DNA of 64,000 nt, from positions 76,465 through 140,464 of the forward strand of contig CAZOVA010000001.1 in the NCBI GenBank assembly GCA_964583625.1, given 5' to 3'. Position 1 is the first letter of the stretch, and every line of letters starts with the position of its first letter. The notes beneath the pieces were generated by a model that had not been told where the DNA came from, did not search any database, and saw only the letters and a program-made list of their open reading frames with translations. Shown piece by piece: positions 19,501-49,631 of this stretch. The translations under genes were made by a program, and so were the position numbers. Origin of the DNA: an uncultured Pseudomonadales bacterium (GTDB taxonomy: Bacteria; Patescibacteriota; Microgenomatia; UBA1400; PJMF01).

Positions 19501-19574
19501 CGGAGTGTAGCTCAGATGGCTAGAGTGCGCGCTTTGGGAGCGTGAGGTCGCAGGTTCGAATCCTGTCACTCCGA
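19501..19574 (+). tRNA. tRNA-Pro (anticodon UGG)
   Basis: Manual fold: 7-bp acceptor CGGAGTG/CACTCCG, D-arm GCTC/GAGT, anticodon stem CGCGC/GCGTG with loop TTTGGGA, 5-nt variable loop, T-arm GCAGG-TTCGAAT-CCTGT, discriminator A, no encoded CCA. Strong resemblance to E. coli tRNA-Pro 3' half. Confidence 0.85.
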
Positions 19575-19704
19575 CATTTGCCTTTTTGAAAATAGAACTT
19601 AGATTTTAGTTTTCCTCTTTTCCAGTTTAATTTTTCAATTTCGTTTAGTATTGTCGTTGATTTCTAATACTTGATGTTTTTTTCTCCACTCAACATTTTA
19701 TTCC

Positions 19705-19733
19705 TTGACAAATCTTATCTGGTAAAATATAAT
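19705..19733 (+). promoter_or_regulatory. perfect consensus sigma70 promoter TTGACA-17-TATAAT
   Basis: ttccTTGACAaatcttatctggtaaaaTATAATttg, about 160 nt upstream of the GTG start of the radical-SAM gene. Confidence 0.55.
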
Positions 19734-19748
19734 TTGTCTATGTTTGTG

Positions 19749-19860
19749 CTACTAATAAGAGGTAATTTTGTCTTATAGTAGTACATCAGTTCTTTCACAT
19801 GATGATTTAAAGATGGCTTTAAATTGGTGGGTATCTTGCCCGCCAGCTTAAAGCCATCTT
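19749..19860 (+). promoter_or_regulatory. structured 5' leader: hairpin 1 (19749-19781, 11 bp with 1-nt bulge) and extended hairpin 2 (19810-19860; 13-bp perfect outer stem AAGATGGCTTTAA/TTAAAGCCATCTT, inner 7-bp stem TGGTGGG/CCCGCCA, 7-nt loop)
   Basis: Base-pairing read directly from the sequence. Ends about 12 nt before the SD AAAGGAGGAG. No U-tract, so not an intrinsic terminator. Confidence 0.35.
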
Positions 19861-19892
19861 GAGATAGTTGGCTAAAAAGGAGGAGAGTAAAA

Positions 19893-20840
19893 GTGGCAAT
19901 TCAATCACTTAGCATTAATCTGACAAAAATGACTAATTATGGAACACTTATTTGTGATGGAAAATGTCCGCAGTGTATTGCCAAAGCAACTTGGAAAACT
20001 GGCGTTCCAAACAATGATCTGATTTCACTCAATCTAAGCAAAGCCCTTAACTATGCCAAACTTCACGGGGTAGATACGGTCGTTTTTACTGGCTCTGTTG
20101 AGCCCTGCATTTGTTCTGAACTCATTTCGCTGGTTTGCCGCGTCAAAGACGCTGGCATTCCATCCATTGAAATTCAAACAAATGGTTACAAAATTTCGCA
20201 GGACAACTATGATCTGCTAAAAAAACTAAAACAGGCAGGACTCACAACAGTGGCGATTTCGGTCAACCACATTGATCCGATTGAGAACAATCGACGCATG
20301 GGCTTCAAAGATAATAGTTACAATTACAAAAACCTTCTTACTAAAATCAAATCTCTCGGTGGGATTTTAGGAAGAGTTTCCTTCAACTTAACTAAGGGAA
20401 GCTTTTTCGAAGACAGACTGAGCATGCTCGGTCTTGAAGAGGGAATGTCTTTCCCAGAACAATTCGTAGAACAACATTTTGTTCCCTGGGCTAAAGAAAT
20501 GAGCGCTATCGGCGCTCATCAGTTGACATTAAGAACAATGGGGAAAGCACTTAATCCGCTCAACACTGATGAAGCGCGAGCGGTTGGGCAGTGGGTCGAC
20601 GACAATCCATTTCCCGAAGATTACAGACTTGCCATTTTTAATTATATTCAAAACGGCAAGTTTCCTCGATTGCGTCGTCTTTACTATGGTCCTTATGTTT
20701 ATAGTTTTTTTGGTATGACTATTGTAGGGACCACCTGTAAACAAGAAGAAACAGTAAACGAAAACGAAATTCGTGGTATCATACTCCAGCCAGATGGGAA
20801 TGTCCATCATAGCTGGGATTATCCAAGCATCATCATTTGA
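19893..20840 (+). CDS. radical SAM protein, NrdG/QueE-like activase subclass with about 150-aa C-terminal extension; orphan (no nrdD or que genes nearby)
   Basis: GTG start with strong SD. CDGKCPQCIAKATW matches the CxxxCPxCxxKxTW cluster of class III RNR activase NrdG and the CDYSCSWCDSAFTW of QueE (from memory). Downstream TVVFTGSVEP and IQTNGYKI resemble the GG-EP and TNG radical-SAM core motifs. Confidence 0.6.
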   Translation: MAIQSLSINLTKMTNYGTLICDGKCPQCIAKATWKTGVPNNDLISLNLSKALNYAKLHGVDTVVFTGSVEPCICSELISLVCRVKDAGIPSIEIQTNGYKISQDNYDLLKKLKQAGLTTVAISVNHIDPIENNRRMGFKDNSYNYKNLLTKIKSLGGILGRVSFNLTKGSFFEDRLSMLGLEEGMSFPEQFVEQHFVPWAKEMSAIGAHQLTLRTMGKALNPLNTDEARAVGQWVDDNPFPEDYRLAIFNYIQNGKFPRLRRLYYGPYVYSFFGMTIVGTTCKQEETVNENEIRGIILQPDGNVHHSWDYPSIII

Positions 20841-20846
20841 AAAATT

Positions 20847-20881
20847 ACCCCGTATTGCTTAGGCGACACGGGGTATTTTAT
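20847..20881 (+). terminator. rho-independent terminator (ACCCCGT-N14-ACGGGGT + ATTTTATT), possibly bidirectional for the convergent KamA-like gene
   Basis: 7-bp GC-rich stem followed by T-tract, 6 nt after the stop codon. Confidence 0.55.
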
Positions 20882-20950
20882 TGGACTTAGGTCTAAAACT
20901 TTTCAGTTGCATATTTTTTTCAATATCTATTCATCATTTTCATAAATTTC

Positions 20951-21913
20951 TTATATTAAATCATCATAAACTATTTCTTCAGAGTGATGATTTAGAGCCA
21001 AATATTTATTCTCCCCAATTTTTTTTAAGCTAGCAACCGGAACTTTCCCTTTCCCCGCTGGTAAATCTAAGTAATAAGTAAAAAGGTCTTTTTTAGGTAG
21101 TTGTTTTTGTAATTGCTGGTAAAGTTTTAGTCCTTCTTCAATTGAAAGGCGAAAGTGGGAAATTCCTGGGGCTTGATCCAAGTGGTAAAGGCGATAAGGT
21201 TCAATTTTTAATTCGACTAGTCGTTTACACAAATCTGCCAAAGTCTTTGCTTCATCATTAACTCCCTTCAACAAAACAGTTTGCGTTTTGAGCTGTACCT
21301 GGGGAAAATTTTTCTGAACTTTCTTTATTAGTTGAATAAAAGCTGGTGAAATTTCTTTTGGATGATTTAAATGAATTACTAAAATTACTTTTTTATCAGC
21401 AAAAGAGAAAAATTTTGTCAGCTGATTGACTGTTAAACTTTCTGGCGCAAAAACTGGCAGGCGAGAGTGATAGCGAATGGTTAGTAGTTGTTTTTGCGCC
21501 ACAACCATTTCCTTTAAAGCAGCAATTTTTTGTTGACCAGCTAAGAGTGGATCACCACCAGATAAAATTAACTCATTAATCTCTTGATGTTTTTGCAGAT
21601 ATAAACCAATTTTTTTCCACTGAAGGGCTGTTTCTTTGTGAAGCAAGTCACTTTCTCTTCGGAAGCAAAAACGACAATGTCCAGCGCAGGTATGATTAAA
21701 AATAAGTAAAGCTTTGGTTGGATAACGATGAATTAATCCTGGTAAAACTTCGTCTACTTTGTCTCCAATCGGATCAGTTTTTTCTTCTTTTAGAACATTT
21801 TTTTCCTTTTCACTAATAAGGATCATTTTAGCTAAGGGGCAATTTTCTAAATTTTGCCAGTCTATTAATTGGCGATAAAAAGGAGAAATTTGTTCAGAAA
21901 AAAGATTGGTCAT
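20951..21913 (-). CDS. KamA-family radical SAM protein (lysine 2,3-aminomutase / EpmB-like)
   Basis: NHTCAGHCRFCFRRES matches the KamA/EpmB CxxxCRFCFRR cluster (E. coli EpmB has CRYCFRRHF). Confidence 0.6.
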   Translation of the reverse strand: MTNLFSEQISPFYRQLIDWQNLENCPLAKMILISEKEKNVLKEEKTDPIGDKVDEVLPGLIHRYPTKALLIFNHTCAGHCRFCFRRESDLLHKETALQWKKIGLYLQKHQEINELILSGGDPLLAGQQKIAALKEMVVAQKQLLTIRYHSRLPVFAPESLTVNQLTKFFSFADKKVILVIHLNHPKEISPAFIQLIKKVQKNFPQVQLKTQTVLLKGVNDEAKTLADLCKRLVELKIEPYRLYHLDQAPGISHFRLSIEEGLKLYQQLQKQLPKKDLFTYYLDLPAGKGKVPVASLKKIGENKYLALNHHSEEIVYDDLI

Positions 21914-21930
21914 TTTTAGTGAAAATATGA

Positions 21931-23766
21931 CTAACTATATTGACTAGCCACCTGTAAGTCTCTTTTACGCAAACGCAAAGATTTAGGGGTGACCTCCAAA
22001 AGTTCATCTTCGGCTAAGTAAGAAAGCGACTGCTCCAAAGACATCACTTTAGCGGGGGACAAACGGATTAGGACATCGGCATTGGAACGTACATTGGTCA
22101 TTTTTTTACCTTTGCACAAATTAATGGCGATATCCTCCTTTTTGGAGTTTTCTCCCACAATCATGCCCGCATAAATTGGCGTTCCAGGAGTAACAAAGGC
22201 AACACCGCGGTCTTCTAGTCTTGCTAAATCATAGCTTAAAGCATTACCTGTCTGCGAGGCAATCAAAACACCATTTCTCTGCCAGGTCATTTTTTCTCCG
22301 ACTGGCCGGTAACCCAAAAATAAAGAATTAACTATTCCTAAACCTGAGGTTTGAGTTTGAAAATCACTTCTAAAACCAATTAAGTTGGCGCTACTGATTT
22401 CATATTCGCAACGCACTCCGTTTTTTAAATTGCGTAAATTGTGAAAAATAGCTTTTCTCTCTCCCATGCTACTAGTAATAACACCCATATATTCTTCTGG
22501 CGCTTCAATAGTCAAAAGTTCCCAAGGTTCCGTTTGTTGTCCAGACTCGTTTTTATAGATAACTTCAGGTCTGCCAACGCTAAACTCATAACCTTCACGG
22601 CGCATATTTTCAATCAAAATCGCCAAATGCAATTCTCCTCGACCAGAAACAAGGAAAGATTCACTTGTTTCTCCCAAAGCTAGGCGCAAACCAACATTAC
22701 GTTCAAGTTCTTTCTCCAAACGAGCCTTGAGTTGTCTGGAGGTATTAAATTCTCCTTCTTGTCCGACGAAGGGAGAGGTAGAAACTAAAAATTGCATCTG
22801 GATGGTCGGCTCACTAATCGCTAGAGCAGGTAAGGGCTCAAGAACTTGGGGATCGCAAAGAGTGTCGGAAATTTTTGCTTGTTCAAAACCAGTCAGAGCG
22901 ACAATGTCTCCACTACTAGCCTTTTCAATTGGTTTCTTATTTAAGCCAAAAAATTCAAATAAAAACTCCACTTTGCCTGTCTGACTTCTTTCTTTTTCCT
23001 GATGATGAACCAAAGTCAGCTGTTGACCTTTAGTGATAGTACCGCGATTGATTTTTCCAATAATATATTGGCCTTTATATTCGTCAAAATCAATATTACT
23101 AACTTGCATTCTCGTTGGTCCTGTTAAAATTTCTGGAGCAGGAATATATTTCAAAATACCCGCAAAAAGAGGTTGGAGATCCTGACTGTCAGTAATTTTC
23201 ATTGAATTATCCGCTAAAGTTTCCACTTGTTGTCCAGCAATTCCTTCTCGTCCAATAGCATAATAAATCGGAAAGTCCAATTGAGACTCATCAATAGCTA
23301 AGTCCAAAAATAAATCATTAATTTCATTAATAACTTCACCCGCCCTTTGATCTTTACGATCTACTTTATTGATAATAACGATTGGTTTAAGTCCCAATTT
23401 AAGAGCCAAGCTCAAAACAAAACGAGTTTGTGAGAGCACCCCTTCAGAGGAATCAACCAAAAGGATACAGCCTTCGGCCATATTAAGAACTCTTTCAACT
23501 TCTCCTGAAAAGTCAGCGTGGCCGGGAGTATCAATAATATTAATTTTATAGTCTTGCCAATGAACAGCCGTGTTTTTGGCCAAAATGGTAACTCCCCTCT
23601 CTCTTTCAATCGCATCACGATCGAGAATAGTGGTTTGTTGCATTTCTGCCTGATGAGCAGCAAAAGTATGGGCTTGTTTTAGCAAACCGTCTACAAGAGT
23701 AGTCTTACCATGGTCGACATGCGCAATAATCGCAATATTGCGAATTTTGGCGCTTTTTTCATTCAT
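21931..23766 (-). CDS. typA: translational GTPase TypA/BipA
   Basis: [23 protein letters not shown]1 motif, DTPGHADF, NKVDR; about 610 aa with BipA-specific C-terminal domain. Confidence 0.85.
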   Translation of the reverse strand: MNEKSAKIRNIAIIAHVDHGKTTLVDGLLKQAHTFAAHQAEMQQTTILDRDAIERERGVTILAKNTAVHWQDYKINIIDTPGHADFSGEVERVLNMAEGCILLVDSSEGVLSQTRFVLSLALKLGLKPIVIINKVDRKDQRAGEVINEINDLFLDLAIDESQLDFPIYYAIGREGIAGQQVETLADNSMKITDSQDLQPLFAGILKYIPAPEILTGPTRMQVSNIDFDEYKGQYIIGKINRGTITKGQQLTLVHHQEKERSQTGKVEFLFEFFGLNKKPIEKASSGDIVALTGFEQAKISDTLCDPQVLEPLPALAISEPTIQMQFLVSTSPFVGQEGEFNTSRQLKARLEKELERNVGLRLALGETSESFLVSGRGELHLAILIENMRREGYEFSVGRPEVIYKNESGQQTEPWELLTIEAPEEYMGVITSSMGERKAIFHNLRNLKNGVRCEYEISSANLIGFRSDFQTQTSGLGIVNSLFLGYRPVGEKMTWQRNGVLIASQTGNALSYDLARLEDRGVAFVTPGTPIYAGMIVGENSKKEDIAINLCKGKKMTNVRSNADVLIRLSPAKVMSLEQSLSYLAEDELLEVTPKSLRLRKRDLQVASQYS

Positions 23767-31850: not shown

Positions 31851-32321
31851 ATCTCTCCTTATTCTATTTATTTTAGAGAGAAGCTATTTTTTTGATAAGA
31901 AAAAACTTTAGGCTCGAAAAAAATAATGATGAGCCCCAAAGGGAAATGGTTTTACACTAAATTTTTTTAGTAAGTTTAGTAAATAAAAACTCATATTTTC
32001 AAATTAATATCTTAATTAGCTTCTCAGAATAAGTCGATTATAACAAAAAAAGCCCCTTTTGTCAATGTGCCGACTGGTTATTACCAGATAAACGCAGAGT
32101 AAAATAGCTGTCTTTTAAATAAAAGTTACTTTTAGTGATTTAGCGTCGGAGATTTTCAGCTCGCAGTCAATAATCAGATTATTAAAATAATTACTTCTTT
32201 TAAGCTTGAATAAATCAGGTAACAAACTGCTAAAGCCTCCAGAGCAAGACAAAGAATAAAAATTTTGATTTTTTATTATTTGAGAAATGAAAGAAAAATT
32301 CTTAGTCTTTTTCTCTAATCA

Positions 32322-41692: not shown

Positions 41693-41817
41693 AAGAACTC
41701 CTTTATTTGCTAGTCGATAATAATTTCATTATATCATAAGATACTTTTAGAGAGAAAATTTGCTTTTATTTAATTAAATAATTTAGTTAAATAGTTTGAT
41801 GTTTTCTTAAAAAGAAA

Positions 41818-41863
41818 GACCCCCGTTTTAAGGCGGGGGTCAGTCGAGAGCAACGCGCTCTCA
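41818..41863 (-). terminator. two tandem stem-loops (GACCCCCG-N8-CGGGGGTC and GAGAGC-N5-GCTCTC) immediately 3' of the GC-rich gene; the first is followed on the minus strand by a T-rich tract
   Basis: Read directly; positions approximate to about 1 nt. Confidence 0.5.
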
Positions 41864-41870
41864 GAAGTAC

Positions 41871-42590
41871 TTACCTGATCGGGTTGAGGGCGACGGTGTC
41901 GCCCATCTTAACGATCACAAAGTCATAGGTGCCGTCGTTGGCCAGGATGCGCACATCCAGGCCGTCGTACGGCTTGTTCTTCAGGTGCTCCACGGGAAGG
42001 AGAACCTGGATCCCAAGATCCCGGTATTCAGCCCAAGCATAGGGCTTAACACCGGCATCGAAGAGCTGGATGCTAGGCACCCAGCCCTTGCTGAAAACGA
42101 GCATCAGCTCGCCGTCAGCCGGGATGGTCATGAAGAACAAGGTATTCCTGCTGGGGTCTCCACCTTGGAGAGTCTCACCCAGCTTCTGTCCGTTCAAGAA
42201 CACCTCAACGAACGAACCGCTGATCTTGAGGACCTGTCCCGCTTTCACGGGGGTCCTCGCCACCTTGAGACCGTTTTCCTCAACGACGGTCAAGCCGTCG
42301 TTGAGCCACACAAAGTGTGGATTTTGATTCTCAATCTGGAAATATTGCCCCCAAGTAATGCGTTCAGCATCACTCAGGTTGACAATCCAGCCAGGCCCAT
42401 CATAGGTCTGAGTAGCTTGCTGCTGGAGATCCAAGGTCGCCAACAACTGCGCCACTTGCTCAGGGGTGCCGTAGAATACGGCCCCGCTGGGTAAGGTGAC
42501 AGGCACGAGTCCCGCGCCTTCCGCGAGGACGGTATTGGCGCCCAGCGCCAGGAGGATCAGGACAACAACGAGGATCATCAGTTTTTTCAT
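41871..42590 (-). CDS. secreted hypothetical protein encoded on a high-GC (about 57%) insert. Signal peptide MKKLMILVVVLILLALGANTVLA. An alternative in-frame upstream start at 42680 also carries an SD
   Basis: Codon usage (CTG, GCC, GGC, GTC) and GC content are sharply different from flanking genes. AAGGAGGG lies 7 nt before the ATG at 42590, and AAGGAGGT 7 nt before the ATG at 42680. Confidence 0.7.
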   Translation of the reverse strand: MKKLMILVVVLILLALGANTVLAEGAGLVPVTLPSGAVFYGTPEQVAQLLATLDLQQQATQTYDGPGWIVNLSDAERITWGQYFQIENQNPHFVWLNDGLTVVEENGLKVARTPVKAGQVLKISGSFVEVFLNGQKLGETLQGGDPSRNTLFFMTIPADGELMLVFSKGWVPSIQLFDAGVKPYAWAEYRDLGIQVLLPVEHLKNKPYDGLDVRILANDGTYDFVIVKMGDTVALNPIR

Positions 42591-42730
42591 GGGGTTTCCC
42601 TCCTTCTTAGCGCCTTGAGCGCTCTTTGTGGGGTTGATCCCCACCGTGGGTTCCTTGGTGTGCACGAACAGCTTCTTCATGATTTTTACCTCCTTCGGTG
42701 GGGATCATGGACCCCGTTTAGTCAGACCTT

Positions 42731-42795
42731 GCTATCGCGAATAGCTAAGATCTGCCACTCAAAACTCAAGTCTTAAGTTCTCAGTGGCAGATCCT
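42731..42795 (-). promoter_or_regulatory. pair of palindromes upstream of the GC-rich gene: GCTATCGCGAATAGC-like and an 11-bp inverted repeat GATCTGCCACT-N23-AGTGGCAGATC
   Basis: Read directly; coordinates approximate. Located about 50-110 nt upstream of the longer start codon. Confidence 0.3.
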
Positions 42796-43063
42796 ATACT
42801 AGGTTCAAGCAAGAAATAACTACACCAAAGTGGTTTCACTATTTTGACTTTGTTATAAGTATCTTCTGTTAAAAAGCGTGTTTAAGAAATATTGCTATTT
42901 CTTTTCACTCCCGCTTCAACTCTAAGAGTTTTTCGCCTTACCAAGCGAAATGCTTGAGAGGCAAGACCTTTCTTATGTTAAAGCGAACACATTATAGCAT
43001 AAGATATCTATTTTGTCAATAGTCAATTATTATAAGTCTAATTATTGAAGAAATAAGAAAATA

Positions 43064-48203: not shown

Positions 48204-49631
48204 TTAAAAAGATGCTGTTACTGTATAAGTGACACTGGTATTATATTTTCCAGGAATATTTGTATTGGAAGAATTAATTTTATAACAAAGATTAACAATG
48301 TCGCCATTGGTAGAACGAAGGTTATTAATAATTTGCAAAGTAGTTTCTCCGTCAGCTTTGTCAGCAAAACTGCTCCAACCGCTAGCTCCGCCAGCAGCAT
48401 TAACACCATTGTAAGTAAAATTGGGAGTAACATTAGGAATATTACCGTTCAAGTATTTATCTCCATCTACCACTTCCATAGAGAAACCAAAGTTTCCTGT
48501 AGTCGCTGGGGCGGTCCAGGCTGTCGCAGTTCCTGGAGTACCAAAATTAGGAATACAAATATCATTACCTAAACCATTTCCTGGGCAACCATCACCATCC
48601 AAACTCATCTGGTCACTGCCAATAGCGGTCACTACATAGCCATTAGCAGCATTAGTAGTGACAGTTAGCTTTTGTGCTGCCTGGGAAAACTGAAGATTGC
48701 TAATCGAACCAAAAGGAACGAGTGATCCCGTAGTGCTAGCAGAAGTGCTAGCTCCACAAGCAGCAACACTATTACCTACACCCTCAATTTTGAAACTTAA
48801 CTGCGGAGCTACTCTGACAACCATTTTGACAGCATTAGCAAAACCGACAGCTGTTGTTTCAGTAAAAACATTTACTCCGGCCCTTTCTTGTTTTAAAGAG
48901 ATCAACATGGAATTAAAGTCACCGACAGTGTCTCCGATTTTAGCCGTCGGATTAATCAAGCCTGTAACGACGAACTCCAATTGCTGATTGGCGGAGGCGG
49001 TCGCCTCAGTGTATTGACAACTAAAAAGATGATTGGGATTGGTTGTCCCGCCTGTTCCCACTGGGGCAGAGGTGGCCGTATAACCAGCTGGGCAAGTGAT
49101 GCTGGCATTGGTATTGAAATCAAAACCATCAATATCTGGTAAACCATCATTAGCAATTGCGGCACTAGCAGTAGCTGCTGGAAAATTAATAGTCAAAATA
49201 TCATTTTGTTGGAGATTGGTAACAGTCGCTTTAATTTTGATAGGACCGCTAGCTCGATGATAAACAGGCGTACCAGCAGCAATATTAGCTGTGGCTAGCA
49301 AACCGTCAAGGGGAATTTCATTATTCTTCAAAAGAGCACTACTAGTAGCTACCTTATAAATAATATTCCCAATTAAGACACTGTCACCATTAATTAATTG
49401 TTGACTAGAAACTGAATAGATCCCCTGAGCTTCATTAGCCACTGTTTCTATCAAAGCTAAGGAAGTATAGGCAACATTACCGCTAGCTAGTTTTCCTCTA
49501 AATGAAAGTCTAGAATTACTTGGAAAAATTTCTACTTGGTTTTGAGCAGCCGCTCTTTCGGGAATAAATAAGATAAGAGAGATAAGAATAAATACGGTCA
49601 ATTTAATCGAAAAATTCTTAAATAATTTCAT
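48204..49631 (-). CDS. secreted Thr/Asn/Gly/Ala-rich beta-rich surface protein (475 aa); possible partner of the anchored protein (WxL/Csc-like arrangement, tentative)
   Basis: Signal peptide MKLFKNFSIKLTVFILISLILFIPERAAA-QN. Low-complexity T/G/N-rich body. No LPXTG motif. Confidence 0.55.
   Translation of the reverse strand: MKLFKNFSIKLTVFILISLILFIPERAAAQNQVEIFPSNSRLSFRGKLASGNVAYTSLALIETVANEAQGIYSVSSQQLINGDSVLIGNIIYKVATSSALLKNNEIPLDGLLATANIAAGTPVYHRASGPIKIKATVTNLQQNDILTINFPAATASAAIANDGLPDIDGFDFNTNASITCPAGYTATSAPVGTGGTTNPNHLFSCQYTEATASANQQLEFVVTGLINPTAKIGDTVGDFNSMLISLKQERAGVNVFTETTAVGFANAVKMVVRVAPQLSFKIEGVGNSVAACGASTSASTTGSLVPFGSISNLQFSQAAQKLTVTTNAANGYVVTAIGSDQMSLDGDGCPGNGLGNDICIPNFGTPGTATAWTAPATTGNFGFSMEVVDGDKYLNGNIPNVTPNFTYNGVNAAGGASGWSSFADKADGETTLQIINNLRSTNGDIVNLCYKINSSNTNIPGKYNTSVTYTVTASF

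Follow-up and report, generated by a model that had tools for sequence, protein, structure and literature searches.

From profile matches and predicted folds, the closest described counterparts of the radical-SAM protein considered here are MoaA (GTP 3′,8-cyclase), viperin and the pVips (radical-SAM NTP dehydratases) and Tes (tetraether lipid synthase). The protein is encoded in a stretch of 64,000 nucleotides, hereafter the window, and Pfam and NCBIfam return only generic core matches for it. With viperin its identity is 17%, its score against NF038283 is 23.6 bits where the cutoff is 180, and the PADLOC pVip-kinase match (E 1e-4) covers the core only. Viperin differs further in its C-terminal motifs, the family of the window protein carrying C282, R294, PDG and W308, and in its setting, which is one of defence islands and kinases, whereas the family is found amid NAD salvage genes with NrtR boxes. 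An assignment as viperin or pVip was rejected on these grounds. MoaA was set aside likewise: the score against TIGR02666 is 40.2 bits (cutoff 284), there is just one conserved cysteine outside the CX3CX2C motif, the C-terminal second [4Fe-4S] cluster of MoaA is missing, and no molybdopterin genes occur among the recurrent neighbour gene clusters of the family. Tes is a protein of about 500 amino acids with extra domains and clusters and a model cutoff of 450 bits, whereas the window protein is shorter and its match is confined to the core, residues 20–136.

The NrdG and PFL-AE activases and QueE have in common with the window protein their membership of the radical-SAM superfamily and a cluster motif near the N-terminus. 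An initial annotation of this DNA had called the protein NrdG/QueE-like, a description that does not survive comparison with models, since there is no NrdG among the 26 NCBIfam matches at E ≤ 1, QueE, with its cutoff of 260 bits, scores 14.4, and the ranking of predicted folds speaks against it. The same annotation had seen no nrdD, glycyl-radical or que genes nearby, and indeed no such gene or domain is present in the Pfam-annotated ORFs of the window; neither the NrdG nor the QueE assignment was retained.

For the untranslated part of the gene, the nearest parallels are of another kind. Stabilising stem-loops at the 5′ end and long RNase III-type leader hairpins are found in the E. coli ompA 5′ UTR and in the processing sites of phages T7 and lambda. 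The leader described below is, in its predicted fold, like these elements in that a first hairpin (HP1) is placed close to the predicted 5′ end, a second (HP2) forms a helix of about 27–31 bp with few interruptions, and the ribosome-binding site (RBS) is left open. It is unlike them in having no sequence relationship to them.

Organisation of the locus

In the CPR (Patescibacteria) chromosome that carries it, the gene makes up a monocistronic unit with a promoter to itself, arranged in the order perfect promoter, leader of about 150 nt, strong Shine-Dalgarno (SD) sequence, GTG start, radical-SAM ORF and bidirectional terminator (Table 1). The initial annotation had described just such an autonomous unit, and in this it was right at every element, including the consensus promoter some 130 nt 3′ of tRNA-Pro; the measured distance from the tRNA, which is the upstream neighbour of the module, to the −35 element is 130 nt.

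Table 1. Features of the module and of its upstream neighbour, in window positions.
Feature	Position	Strand	Details
tRNA-Pro (anticodon TGG), without encoded CCA	19501–19575	+	ARAGORN; Rfam tRNA 63.4 bits
Sigma-70 consensus promoter	19705–19733	+	−35 TTGACA 19705–19710, spacer 17, −10 TATAAT 19728–19733; 12/12 match
Hairpin HP1, ~5 nt from predicted 5′ end	19745–19785	+	−17.4 kcal/mol on + vs −10.1 on −
Hairpin HP2	19800–19870	+	−35.8 kcal/mol on + vs −27.7 on −
Shine-Dalgarno AAAGGAGGAG, 7 nt 5′ of GTG	19876–19885	+	Sequence
Radical-SAM ORF, 315 aa, C21-x3-C25-x2-C28	19893–20840	+	
Bidirectional intrinsic terminator	20842–20882	both	A-tract, 8-bp GC-rich stem + inner stem, U-tract; inverted repeat I10

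The perfect promoter form TTGACA-17-TATAAT occurs four times in the window, in each case correctly oriented 5′ of a gene. Shuffled sequences gave on average 0.75 matches with at most one mismatch, and reached four in only 1 of 100 shuffles. An RpoD-type sigma factor is itself encoded within the window. Transcription is predicted from the sequence to begin near A19740, and the N-termini of family members align with the GTG at 19893. At the other end, the terminator lies between the convergent radical-SAM and KamA-like genes. Its core (20846–20875) is followed by UUUUAUU, with the upstream A-tract serving the − strand in like manner, and the hairpin has an energy of −19.8 kcal/mol on the + strand and −18.3 on the −. 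It was found by folding; a simple terminator scanner did not report the hairpin at 20842–20879.

The GC content of the gene is 0.41, compared with 0.31–0.34 in its immediate neighbours, such that an earlier claim of GC above background is correct with respect to these neighbours, but not with respect to the genes of the window as a whole, within whose range the value falls. The GC3 value of 0.38 is among the highest for ordinary genes of the window.

The radical-SAM protein and its family

Sequence comparison assigns the window protein to a radical-SAM family of about 290 amino acids that has no name, within which it is divergent and specific to its lineage. Its membership of the superfamily is seen in the CX3CX2C motif together with a PF04055 score of 49.3 bits (gathering threshold 29.5), and the predicted fold is a partial TIM barrel. 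What had been taken for a C-terminal domain of about 150 amino acids consists for the most part of the latter half of the radical-SAM barrel, leaving a family-specific extension of about 60 amino acids. Similarity to the family extends over the full length of the protein and includes the conserved R161, QxTxR, the extra cysteine C282, the C-terminal R294, PDG and W308. Of the 44 columns conserved at ≥ 80% in the family the window protein matches 37 and differs at seven, with all three cluster cysteines kept. The SAM-binding ‘GGE’ motif is one of the places of divergence, reading TGSVEP where the family has TGxGEP (G in 98%), with E70 and P71 retained.

An exhaustive HMMER search with full-length alignment places 731 representatives in the family at E ≤ 1e-3, of which 255 remain at E ≤ 1e-10. 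They occur in CPR bacteria, DPANN archaea, Melainabacteria and uncultured phages, huge ones included, and carry in databases only the labels ‘radical SAM protein’, ‘hypothetical protein’ or an automatic ‘MoaA’. Neither the window protein nor a gut-phage member has homologues among the cultured phages in GenBank; the only such matches are to two unannotated metagenomic phage records of 735 kb, at 24% identity. BFVD contains generic radical-SAM proteins only.

Association with NAD metabolism

The family is strongly linked to NAD metabolism, a connection that had been missed when the window was first read. Of 70 genomic loci, 53 have at least one NAD gene within 6 kb of the family gene, as do 23 of 60 viral loci; such a gene is directly adjacent in 43 of the genomic and 17 of the viral loci. 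The partners are PncA, NAPRT, NAD-kinase-like genes, NrtR, NadR, PnuC and NadABC; two loci (L077 and L069) have the operon NadA-NadC-RSAM-NadB, and in a closer subgroup, at 36–40% identity to the window protein, the gene is convergent with an NMNAT–NAD-kinase fusion gene. Operators of NrtR are palindromes of the 21-bp type with a GT-N7-AC core (Rodionov et al. 2008, PMC2330246). The family operons are like the regulon of that study in combining NrtR, PncA, NAPRT (PncB), NadR, PnuC and NadABC with such palindromes. Indeed, an NrtR box (TAGTGTA-N5-TACACTA) stands 5′ of operons containing the radical-SAM gene in 22 loci, and directly upstream of the gene itself at five sites. In a term search, the word ‘radical’ does not occur in the text of PMC2330246.

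The window copy differs from the regulon in having neither NrtR nor a box. Pfam annotation shows no NAD salvage genes in the 64 kb or in a further 6.7 kb upstream, and tblastn of the neighbour-cluster proteins against the window gives no match at 1e-3. The only match to the NrtR box in the window, at 48219, has three mismatches and is at chance level, and no GT-N7-AC palindrome lies in 19576–19900. Necessarily, therefore, the link to NAD comes from distant relatives of the protein (25–43% identity) and not from the window locus, a situation with parallels in the family, since 17 of the 70 genomic loci are likewise without an NAD gene within 6 kb. An HMM built from 54 NAD-adjacent members scores 137.7 bits against the window protein, which it covers end to end (profile positions 11–289 of 291), compared with 14.6 bits against the neighbouring KamA-like radical-SAM protein.

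Structure of the leader

The leader (19740–19900) folds at −56.8 kcal/mol, against −34.2 ± 3.5 kcal/mol in dinucleotide shuffles (z −6.4; none of 200 shuffles equal), and at −41.1 kcal/mol on the antisense strand. In HP2, an outer stem of 13 perfect base pairs (19810–19822/19848–19860) encloses an inner stem of 10 bp (19824–19833/19837–19846), made up of seven Watson-Crick and three G.U pairs and closed by a 3-nt loop, with eight further basal pairs below. The ‘13 + 7’ pairs of the initial annotation correspond to the outer stem and the Watson-Crick pairs of the inner one. Outside one GC-rich island, HP2 is the strongest 80-nt fold of the window (−37.4 against a mean of −12.4, s.d. 5.2, over 12,784 windows). 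In the ensemble, the pairing of both hairpins is essentially complete, the unpaired probability of the HP1 stem being about 0. The SD, by comparison, has a mean unpaired probability of 0.37, and RBS accessibility is 0.46, rank 18 of 44 genes, which is to say median. No U-tract follows HP2 in the sequence.

Scans of the leader against Rfam 15 returned no family at or above its gathering threshold; in the whole window only tRNA passes. The best sub-threshold matches were SAM_alpha (20.3 bits against 36) and hairpin-like miRNA models, and known NAD riboswitches gave no match to the leader at E ≤ 10. The SAM_alpha, or SAM-II, riboswitch (RF00521) resembles the leader in a weak match at 19817–19896, including the GCUAAAAAGG/SD stretch, and in lying 5′ of a gene for a SAM-using enzyme. 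It is unlike it in that the modelled P1 contains a mismatch and competes with the far more stable HP2, and in that the pseudoknot is only partly formable. The match was judged spurious from its score and from this competition.

Nor does the leader have recognisable relatives. No sequence homologue was found in more than 150 loci (1.8 Mb of family loci), IMG/VR or JGI metagenomes, and a covariance model of HP2 plus the SD, run over the 1.8 Mb of family loci, found only chance-level hairpins, at best 20 bits in L037 and 18.6 bits in L032. The HP2 repeat has no second copy in the window with three mismatches allowed. A repeated or mobile element was rejected on these searches. Within the species, the three assemblies compared (L001, L163 and L164) are identical in the leader. 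Small ORFs in the leader were dismissed as leader peptides, having only 27–35 codons, no SD and an overlap with the promoter or the hairpins. The arms of HP1, TTAGTAGCAC and ATAGTAGTAC, are loosely like NrtR half-sites but stand in everted orientation, and are taken to be a coincidence.

Origin of the window copy

Judged by its sequence, the window copy stands apart as an orphan, divergent and confined to its species. None of the searches found a relative above 43% identity, and three related CPR genomes lack the gene next to their KamA-like one, synteny breaking exactly at that place. The closest relative, P0002, is on a phage-like contig. Horizontal transfer from a phage-like source is the probable origin of the copy, which is proposed to be uncoupled from NrtR control. 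In other words, one half of the earlier suggestion of acquired cargo beside a tRNA is plausible, namely the acquisition. The other half, a tRNA-linked integrative island, was rejected, since no integrase domain occurs in the Pfam-annotated window ORFs that were checked and no repeat of 19531–19600, around the tRNA 3′ end, is found in the window beyond chance 9–15-mers. In one assembly of this species the conserved C-terminus is cut short by a 1-nt insertion, and the window copy may be under relaxed constraint.

Interpretation and alternatives

The best overall explanation, to which we would give a probability of roughly 0.55, is that the locus is an autonomous unit encoding an orphan member of an NAD-linked radical-SAM family, with a leader that acts on the mRNA. 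The three-cysteine [4Fe-4S] cluster would cleave SAM to yield a 5′-deoxyadenosyl radical, which would in turn take a hydrogen from a substrate of nucleotide type. The only guides to this substrate are the genomic setting of the family and its neighbours in fold, and they make a pyridine nucleotide, or an intermediate of NAD breakdown or salvage that resembles ADP-ribose, the likeliest choice; C282 is a candidate hydrogen donor. As to the leader, the evidence leans weakly towards an element for the stability or processing of the mRNA, a role suggested by its modelled shape, that is, by rigid hairpins specific to the sense strand which do not occlude the RBS. HP1 would then be a protective stem-loop at the 5′ terminus, and HP2 a long double-stranded element for stability or for RNase III-type processing. 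A ligand sensor is less likely than such action at the level of the mRNA.

A bolder proposal, tentative and to be held at well below even odds, is that the family catalyses an undescribed radical step in pyridine-nucleotide metabolism, within the NrtR regulon of CPR and DPANN organisms and carried by phages beside NAD-kinase-like and NMNAT genes, and that the window copy is a phage-derived orphan in which a dedicated promoter and a new structured leader have taken the place of NrtR control. If so, the enzyme could modify, repair or interconvert NAD(P), NaAD, NMN or ADP-ribose. To our knowledge radical-SAM enzymes have not been implicated in NAD salvage or biosynthesis. The literature searched contained no such role, nor any paper or curated model that describes a link between this family and NAD. 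That a conserved radical-SAM gene is set between PncA/NAPRT and NAD-kinase-like genes, in operons with NrtR boxes before them, in uncultured phages and in the most reduced of cellular lineages, CPR and DPANN, points to missing NAD biochemistry in salvage-dependent organisms, and may be relevant to phage–host conflict over NAD+. The window locus is a compact stand-alone version of the gene, with promoter, leader, ORF and terminator, and its leader is an orphan structured RNA.

The gene could instead be what is left of a phage gene gained by horizontal transfer, in decay and functionless in its host, with hairpins that merely came along with it. Decay of this kind would account for G69V in the GGE motif, for the seven changed columns, for the frameshifted allele and for the absence of partner NAD genes, but it is unlikely given that the window and two further assemblies (L163 and L164) have an unbroken ORF, that the 23 contigs read with the neighbouring Wzy-like gene all show the same gene arrangement, that the three cluster cysteines and most conserved positions are kept, and that the promoter, the SD and the terminator are each perfect or strong. 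It is very unlikely that the family makes modified nucleotides as a viperin-like enzyme of antiviral or anti-defence function and that the window copy is a stand-alone defence gene. Against this stand the low viperin score, with matching limited to the radical-SAM core, the place of the family in NrtR-boxed operons beside PncA, NAPRT and NadABC, and the lack of flanking defence genes in the window, although weak PADLOC pVip matches in 28 of 30 members, a patchy distribution that includes phages and a stand-alone unit with its own promoter are what such a gene might show.

Returning to the preferred reading, an autonomous unit whose leader acts on the mRNA, the remaining alternatives turn on the hairpins. 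The least probable of all is that put forward by the initial annotation, a stand-alone activase-like enzyme of the NrdG/QueE type under a riboswitch, attenuator or RNA thermometer. The CxxxCPxCxxKxTW motif is indeed present and 11 of 30 family members have sub-threshold NrdG2 matches, but the window protein itself fits neither model. The SAM-II match has an E value of 0.0097 in a search of 181 nt that becomes 0.086 over 1.6 kb, falls short of its gathering threshold, and would require HP2 to melt; HP2 is moreover a near-continuous helix with neither junction nor internal loop to accommodate a ligand. As to a thermometer or SD sequestration, the minimum free energy fold pairs the SD weakly with UUCUUU (19790–19795) and the GTG with codons 5–7, yet the accessibility of the RBS is median among window genes, and attenuation would call for the missing U-tract. 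Absence from Rfam, lack of homologues and an accessible RBS together argue against a riboswitch. The same annotation had offered a protein operator, and it is improbable that the HP2 palindrome is the DNA operator of a dimeric repressor, or a scar of recombination or insertion, with no role as RNA. The outer stem is a perfect inverted repeat and the module sits at a synteny break beside a tRNA, but the arms are 25 nt apart and 75–130 nt downstream of the predicted start, an unusual arrangement for an operator. Further, the fold is better on the sense strand by some 8–16 kcal/mol because the inner stem and HP1 use G.U pairs, which become A-C mismatches on the other strand, and the repeat is unique in the window with no repeat of the tRNA 3′ end. 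Just as improbable is a new class of cis-regulatory RNA, such as a sensor of an NAD metabolite, that replaces the NrtR control of the family. It is disfavoured by a rigid ensemble with no alternative fold, by an RBS that is not sequestered, by the empty search for known NAD riboswitches and by the lack of any sequence or structural homologue in the family loci and the viral and metagenome collections. What it would explain is a strand-specific structure in a copy outside any NrtR operator context, in a 5′ UTR that is unusually long and structured for a family in which the median upstream gap is 11.5 nt. Very stable hairpins just 5′ of the SD are also found in two unrelated family members, L044 (z −5.3) and L136 (z −3.6).

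Promoter, start and terminator of the module

The layout proposed for this region in the initial annotation is borne out, in that the tRNA, promoter, two leader hairpins (HP1 and HP2), Shine–Dalgarno sequence (SD), GTG start, ORF and terminator were all found. The overall number of promoter-like sequences in the region shows no excess, at 8 against 6.6 in shuffles. Perfect 12/12 matches number four in the window, all beginning TTGACAAA, at 19705 and, on the minus strand, at 32037, 42991 and 44312; each lies in the correct orientation 5′ of a gene, these being the radical-SAM (rSAM) gene considered here, RNase Y, the ORF of a GC-rich island and hrcA. Since shuffled sequence gives a mean of 0.75 matches with one mismatch permitted, and since an RpoD-type sigma factor gene is present in the window, the rSAM promoter is very probably real. 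The genome as a whole appears to use textbook sigma-70 promoters.

The GTG is the first start codon past a stop, and the N-termini of homologues align there. At the other end of the gene, the terminator hairpin has a similar stability on the two strands (−19.8 and −18.3), such that it can work bidirectionally, serving both the rSAM gene and its convergent KamA-like neighbour.

Features of the module, of the GC-rich island and of related loci (L numbers denote fetched loci; other coordinates are those of the window)
Feature	Position	Strand	Remarks
tRNA-Pro(TGG)	19501-19575		
AT-rich spacer	between tRNA-Pro and promoter		129 nt
Promoter	19705-19733		TTGACA-17-TATAAT, perfect 12/12
Predicted +1	~19740		inferred
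HP1	19745-19785		
HP2	19800-19870		13-bp perfect outer stem; 10-bp inner stem (7 Watson–Crick + 3 G.U); UCU loop
SD	19876-19885		AAAGGAGGAG, then GTG start at 19893
rSAM ORF	19893-20840	plus	315 aa
Terminator hairpin	20842-20882	both	A-tract 5′, U-tract 3′
KamA/EpmB-like gene	20951-23766	minus	second radical-SAM gene, aminomutase homologue, directly 3′ of BipA/TypA
GC-rich island	41800-42750		~900 bp, 52-59% GC
Island ORF	41871-42680	minus	269 aa, GC3 0.73, N-terminal signal or TM segment
Promoter 5′ of island ORF	42991-43019	minus	perfect consensus
Hairpin before rSAM SD, L044	5870-6010		Uhrbacteria genome, z −5.3
Hairpin before rSAM SD, L136	5696-5845		viral contig, z −3.6
Candidate NrtR boxes, examples among L004-L081	L012:1233-1251; L017:2901-2919; L052:142-160; L077:4141		
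rSAM and convergent operon	L165:8886-12262; L153:4143-7387		non-CPR bacterial lineage

A radical-SAM family outside curated models

In Pfam the protein matches the radical-SAM core only (PF04055, 49.3 bits, residues 18-157). Its NCBIfam matches are likewise confined to the core and fall far under every cutoff (Tes 45.3 against 450, MoaA 40.2 against 284, viperin 23.6 against 180, QueE 14.4 against 260), with no NrdG model among them, and so the earlier description of the protein as NrdG/QueE-like does not hold. What had been taken for a C-terminal domain of unknown function is rather the second half of the barrel together with a family-specific extension.

Among 5.8 billion proteins, a word-indexed search matched one sequence only, which is near-identical and belongs to the same species. 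An exhaustive HMMER search gave 731 representatives at E<=1e-3, 255 of them at E<=1e-10, which are ~285-300 aa long and align over their full length with a top identity of 43%. Invariant in the family alignments are C21/C25/C28, E70 and R161, and the motifs TGxGEP, ELQTNG and QxTxR are nearly so; there is one extra conserved cysteine, C282, and a C-terminal motif R294-x-(I/L)-x2-PDG...W308. No Pfam or NCBIfam model covers the family, whose members are named in public databases only as ‘radical SAM protein’, ‘hypothetical protein’ or, automatically, ‘MoaA’.

Association with NAD genes

To survey the family's neighbourhoods, 80 genomic and 68 viral loci with members were fetched, ORFs were called, neighbours were clustered and recurrent clusters were identified by Pfam; NadB and NadC were assigned by eye from the sequences of cluster representatives, not by profile scan. 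The recurrent neighbours are NAPRT/PncB, the nicotinamidase PncA, NadR-type NMNAT/kinase, PnuC, ADP-ribosylglycohydrolase, NrtR (a Nudix domain with the NrtR winged-helix domain), NadA in company with NadB and NadC, and an NAD-kinase-like protein (NADK), often as two or three paralogues per cluster. At least one NAD gene lies within 6 kb of the rSAM gene in 53/70 genomic and 23/60 viral loci, and directly adjoins it in 43 and 17 of these totals, respectively. The typical order in DPANN and CPR genomes is NAPRT-PncA-RSAM-(AT-like)-NADK-NrtR-PnuC-NadR and in phages Metallophos-RSAM-NADK-NMNAT, while L077 and L069 have NadA-NadC-RSAM-NadB. Directly 3′ of the rSAM gene in 19 loci (including L005, L007, L010, L018, L019, L025 and L026) is an aminotransferase-fold protein of ~310-325 aa, of class I/II with a PLP-type SxSK, which is a candidate partner enzyme. 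Among GenBank phages, only two unannotated 735-kb metagenomic records hold a member, and a distant one.

The NAD link persists in the subgroup nearest to the window protein. For its members P0003 and P0274 (36-40% identity) the gene runs convergently to one for an NMNAT-NAD-kinase fusion, and P0002 (43%) comes from a phage-like contig, where its neighbour is a metallophosphatase, an arrangement known from the NAD clusters of phages. Moreover, an HMM built from the 54 NAD-adjacent members only scores the window protein at 137.7 bits end to end (profile positions 11-289 of 291), as against 14.6 bits for the neighbouring KamA-like protein. In L165 and L153 the rSAM gene is convergent with an operon encoding the NMNAT-NAD-kinase fusion and a 625-669-aa protein in which Pfam finds no domain.

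The NrtR paper (PMC2330246) describes the regulator's sites as palindromes of 21 bp around a GT-N7-AC core. An intergenic search for palindromes of this type gave a clear box, TAGTGTA-N5-TACACTA, whose occurrences at two mismatches or fewer are intergenic in 55/63 cases. Twenty-three candidate boxes, in 22 loci, stand 5′ of an rSAM-containing operon, and at five of these (L012, L015, L017, L052 and L068) directly 5′ of the rSAM gene. The candidate operator is common to CPR bacteria and DPANN archaea, 5′ of NAD operons, which suggests the same regulon logic across the two domains and probably gene exchange between them. Full-text literature searches, NARP literature included, found no paper tying a radical-SAM enzyme to NrtR or NAD salvage, and the word ‘radical’ gave no match when the text of the NrtR paper (PMC2330246) was searched for it.

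Setting and origin of the window copy

The source organism is a CPR/Patescibacteria bacterium: homologues of the KamA-like protein are named Dojkabacteria, Gottesmanbacteria and Microgenomates, among others, T4SS pilins are present, and dnaA lies ~7 kb before the window start. At least 23 contigs, drawn from several projects, carry the neighbouring Wzy-like gene and share one gene arrangement around the module; at the DNA level, the three assemblies compared match the window at 99.96-100% identity. Neither an NAD salvage gene nor an NrtR box was found in the window or the 6.7 kb upstream.

The pairing of BipA/TypA with the KamA-like gene is kept in related CPR genomes; this gene is unrelated to the rSAM finding, though it could pass for a partner. 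In three relatives (L158, L160 and L162, KamA-like protein 57-58% identical) the block S21-BipA-KamA leads straight into T4SS pilin-RecO-...-EF-Tu-EF-G, whereas in the window the latter block occupies 44.5-53 kb, and it is the rSAM terminator that adjoins the 3′ end of KamA. The stretch from the KamA-like gene to hrcA (~20.9-44.5 kb) is inverted relative to these genomes; the split of the block therefore places the module at one junction of a ~24 kb inversion. The module is absent from the corresponding position in all three.

No repeat of the tRNA-Pro 3′ end was found in the window and no integrase among its annotated ORFs, and a classical tRNA-integrated island is accordingly rejected. Taken together with GC values at the high end of the window genes without being an outlier (GC 0.41, GC3 0.38), and with the lack of any relative above 43% identity, this favours a lineage-specific acquisition, the source of which was probably phage-like.

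The leader RNA

From predicted +1 to start codon the leader folds at −56.8 kcal/mol, against −34.2 ± 3.5 in shuffles (z −6.4), and among 12,784 80-nt windows on both strands HP2 is surpassed only by the GC-rich island at ~42 kb. There is no U-tract after HP2. In the MFE structure UUCUUU (19790-19795) forms weak pairs with the SD, and codons 5-7 pair with the GTG; with an accessibility of 0.46 (rank 18/44 among window genes), the RBS (−16..+3) nonetheless shows no special sequestration.

The leader is an orphan. It has no second copy in the window, no orthologous counterpart, no sequence or structural relatives in ~1.8 Mb of family loci, and none in IMG/VR or JGI metagenomes. The median gap upstream of the family's rSAM genes is 11.5 nt, most members being without any leader. 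Very stable hairpins right before the rSAM SD occur also in two unrelated members (L044 and L136), with no sequence similarity to the window leader.

Proposed role and alternatives

A strong promoter of constitutive type leads into a 5′ UTR with two rigid hairpins, followed by an accessible RBS, the rSAM ORF and its terminator. In the mechanism that we propose, the enzyme would use a [4Fe-4S] cluster and SAM to form a 5′-deoxyadenosyl radical, which would attack a nucleotide-type substrate, with C282 a plausible hydrogen donor. A pyridine nucleotide or an ADP-ribose-like intermediate is the putative substrate, judging by the family's gene context, NAD clusters headed by NrtR boxes, and by its fold neighbours, whose substrates are CTP, GTP or a nucleoside. 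More tentatively, the hairpins might serve mRNA stability or processing rather than ligand sensing, HP1 being placed some 5 nt after the 5′ end and HP2 forming a long helix.

A novel riboswitch would suit so strongly folded a leader, and is nonetheless improbable: in the ensemble, pairing reaches essentially 100% along both stems, which gives no sign of bistability, and the HP2 helix is near-continuous, without junction or internal loop. Rfam scans found no family at threshold; the one suggestive match, to SAM-II (20.3 bits, gathering score 36), is discounted, since it owes its score to the GCUAAAAAGG stretch near the SD and requires a P1 helix in competition with HP2. The perfect outer stem of HP2 might equally be read as a DNA operator or scar, to which we give a similarly small chance. 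The plus strand is more stable than the minus strand for the leader (−56.8 against −41.1), HP2 (−35.8 against −27.7 kcal/mol) and HP1 (−17.4 against −10.1), and the gain of 16 kcal/mol over the whole leader comes from G.U pairs, which speaks against a palindrome or operator acting purely as DNA; the hairpins are sense-strand, RNA-level features.

That the gene is an acquired one in decay is an unlikely reading too. There are two caveats to the function of this copy. It carries V69 where TGxGEP has a G at 98% conservation, and departs from the family at 7/44 conserved columns; and in L001 (SRR27449281), of the same species, a 1-nt A insertion in the A-run at 20749, either a true polymorphism or an error of assembly, shifts the reading frame over the final ~27 codons, with loss of the conserved C-terminal motif. 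A viperin-like defence function, for which the core match and the family's occurrence in phages might be cited, has comparably poor odds beside the sub-cutoff score and the NAD neighbourhood of the family. The radical-SAM superfamily is already known; this family, its C-terminal signature and its NAD association are outside the curated models and the literature found.

A GC-rich island

The island at ~42 kb lies within a genome of 35-40% GC and contains the strongest local RNA folds of the window. Its ORF, without a match in Pfam, NCBIfam or Rfam, looks like a secreted protein gene acquired horizontally from a high-GC donor.
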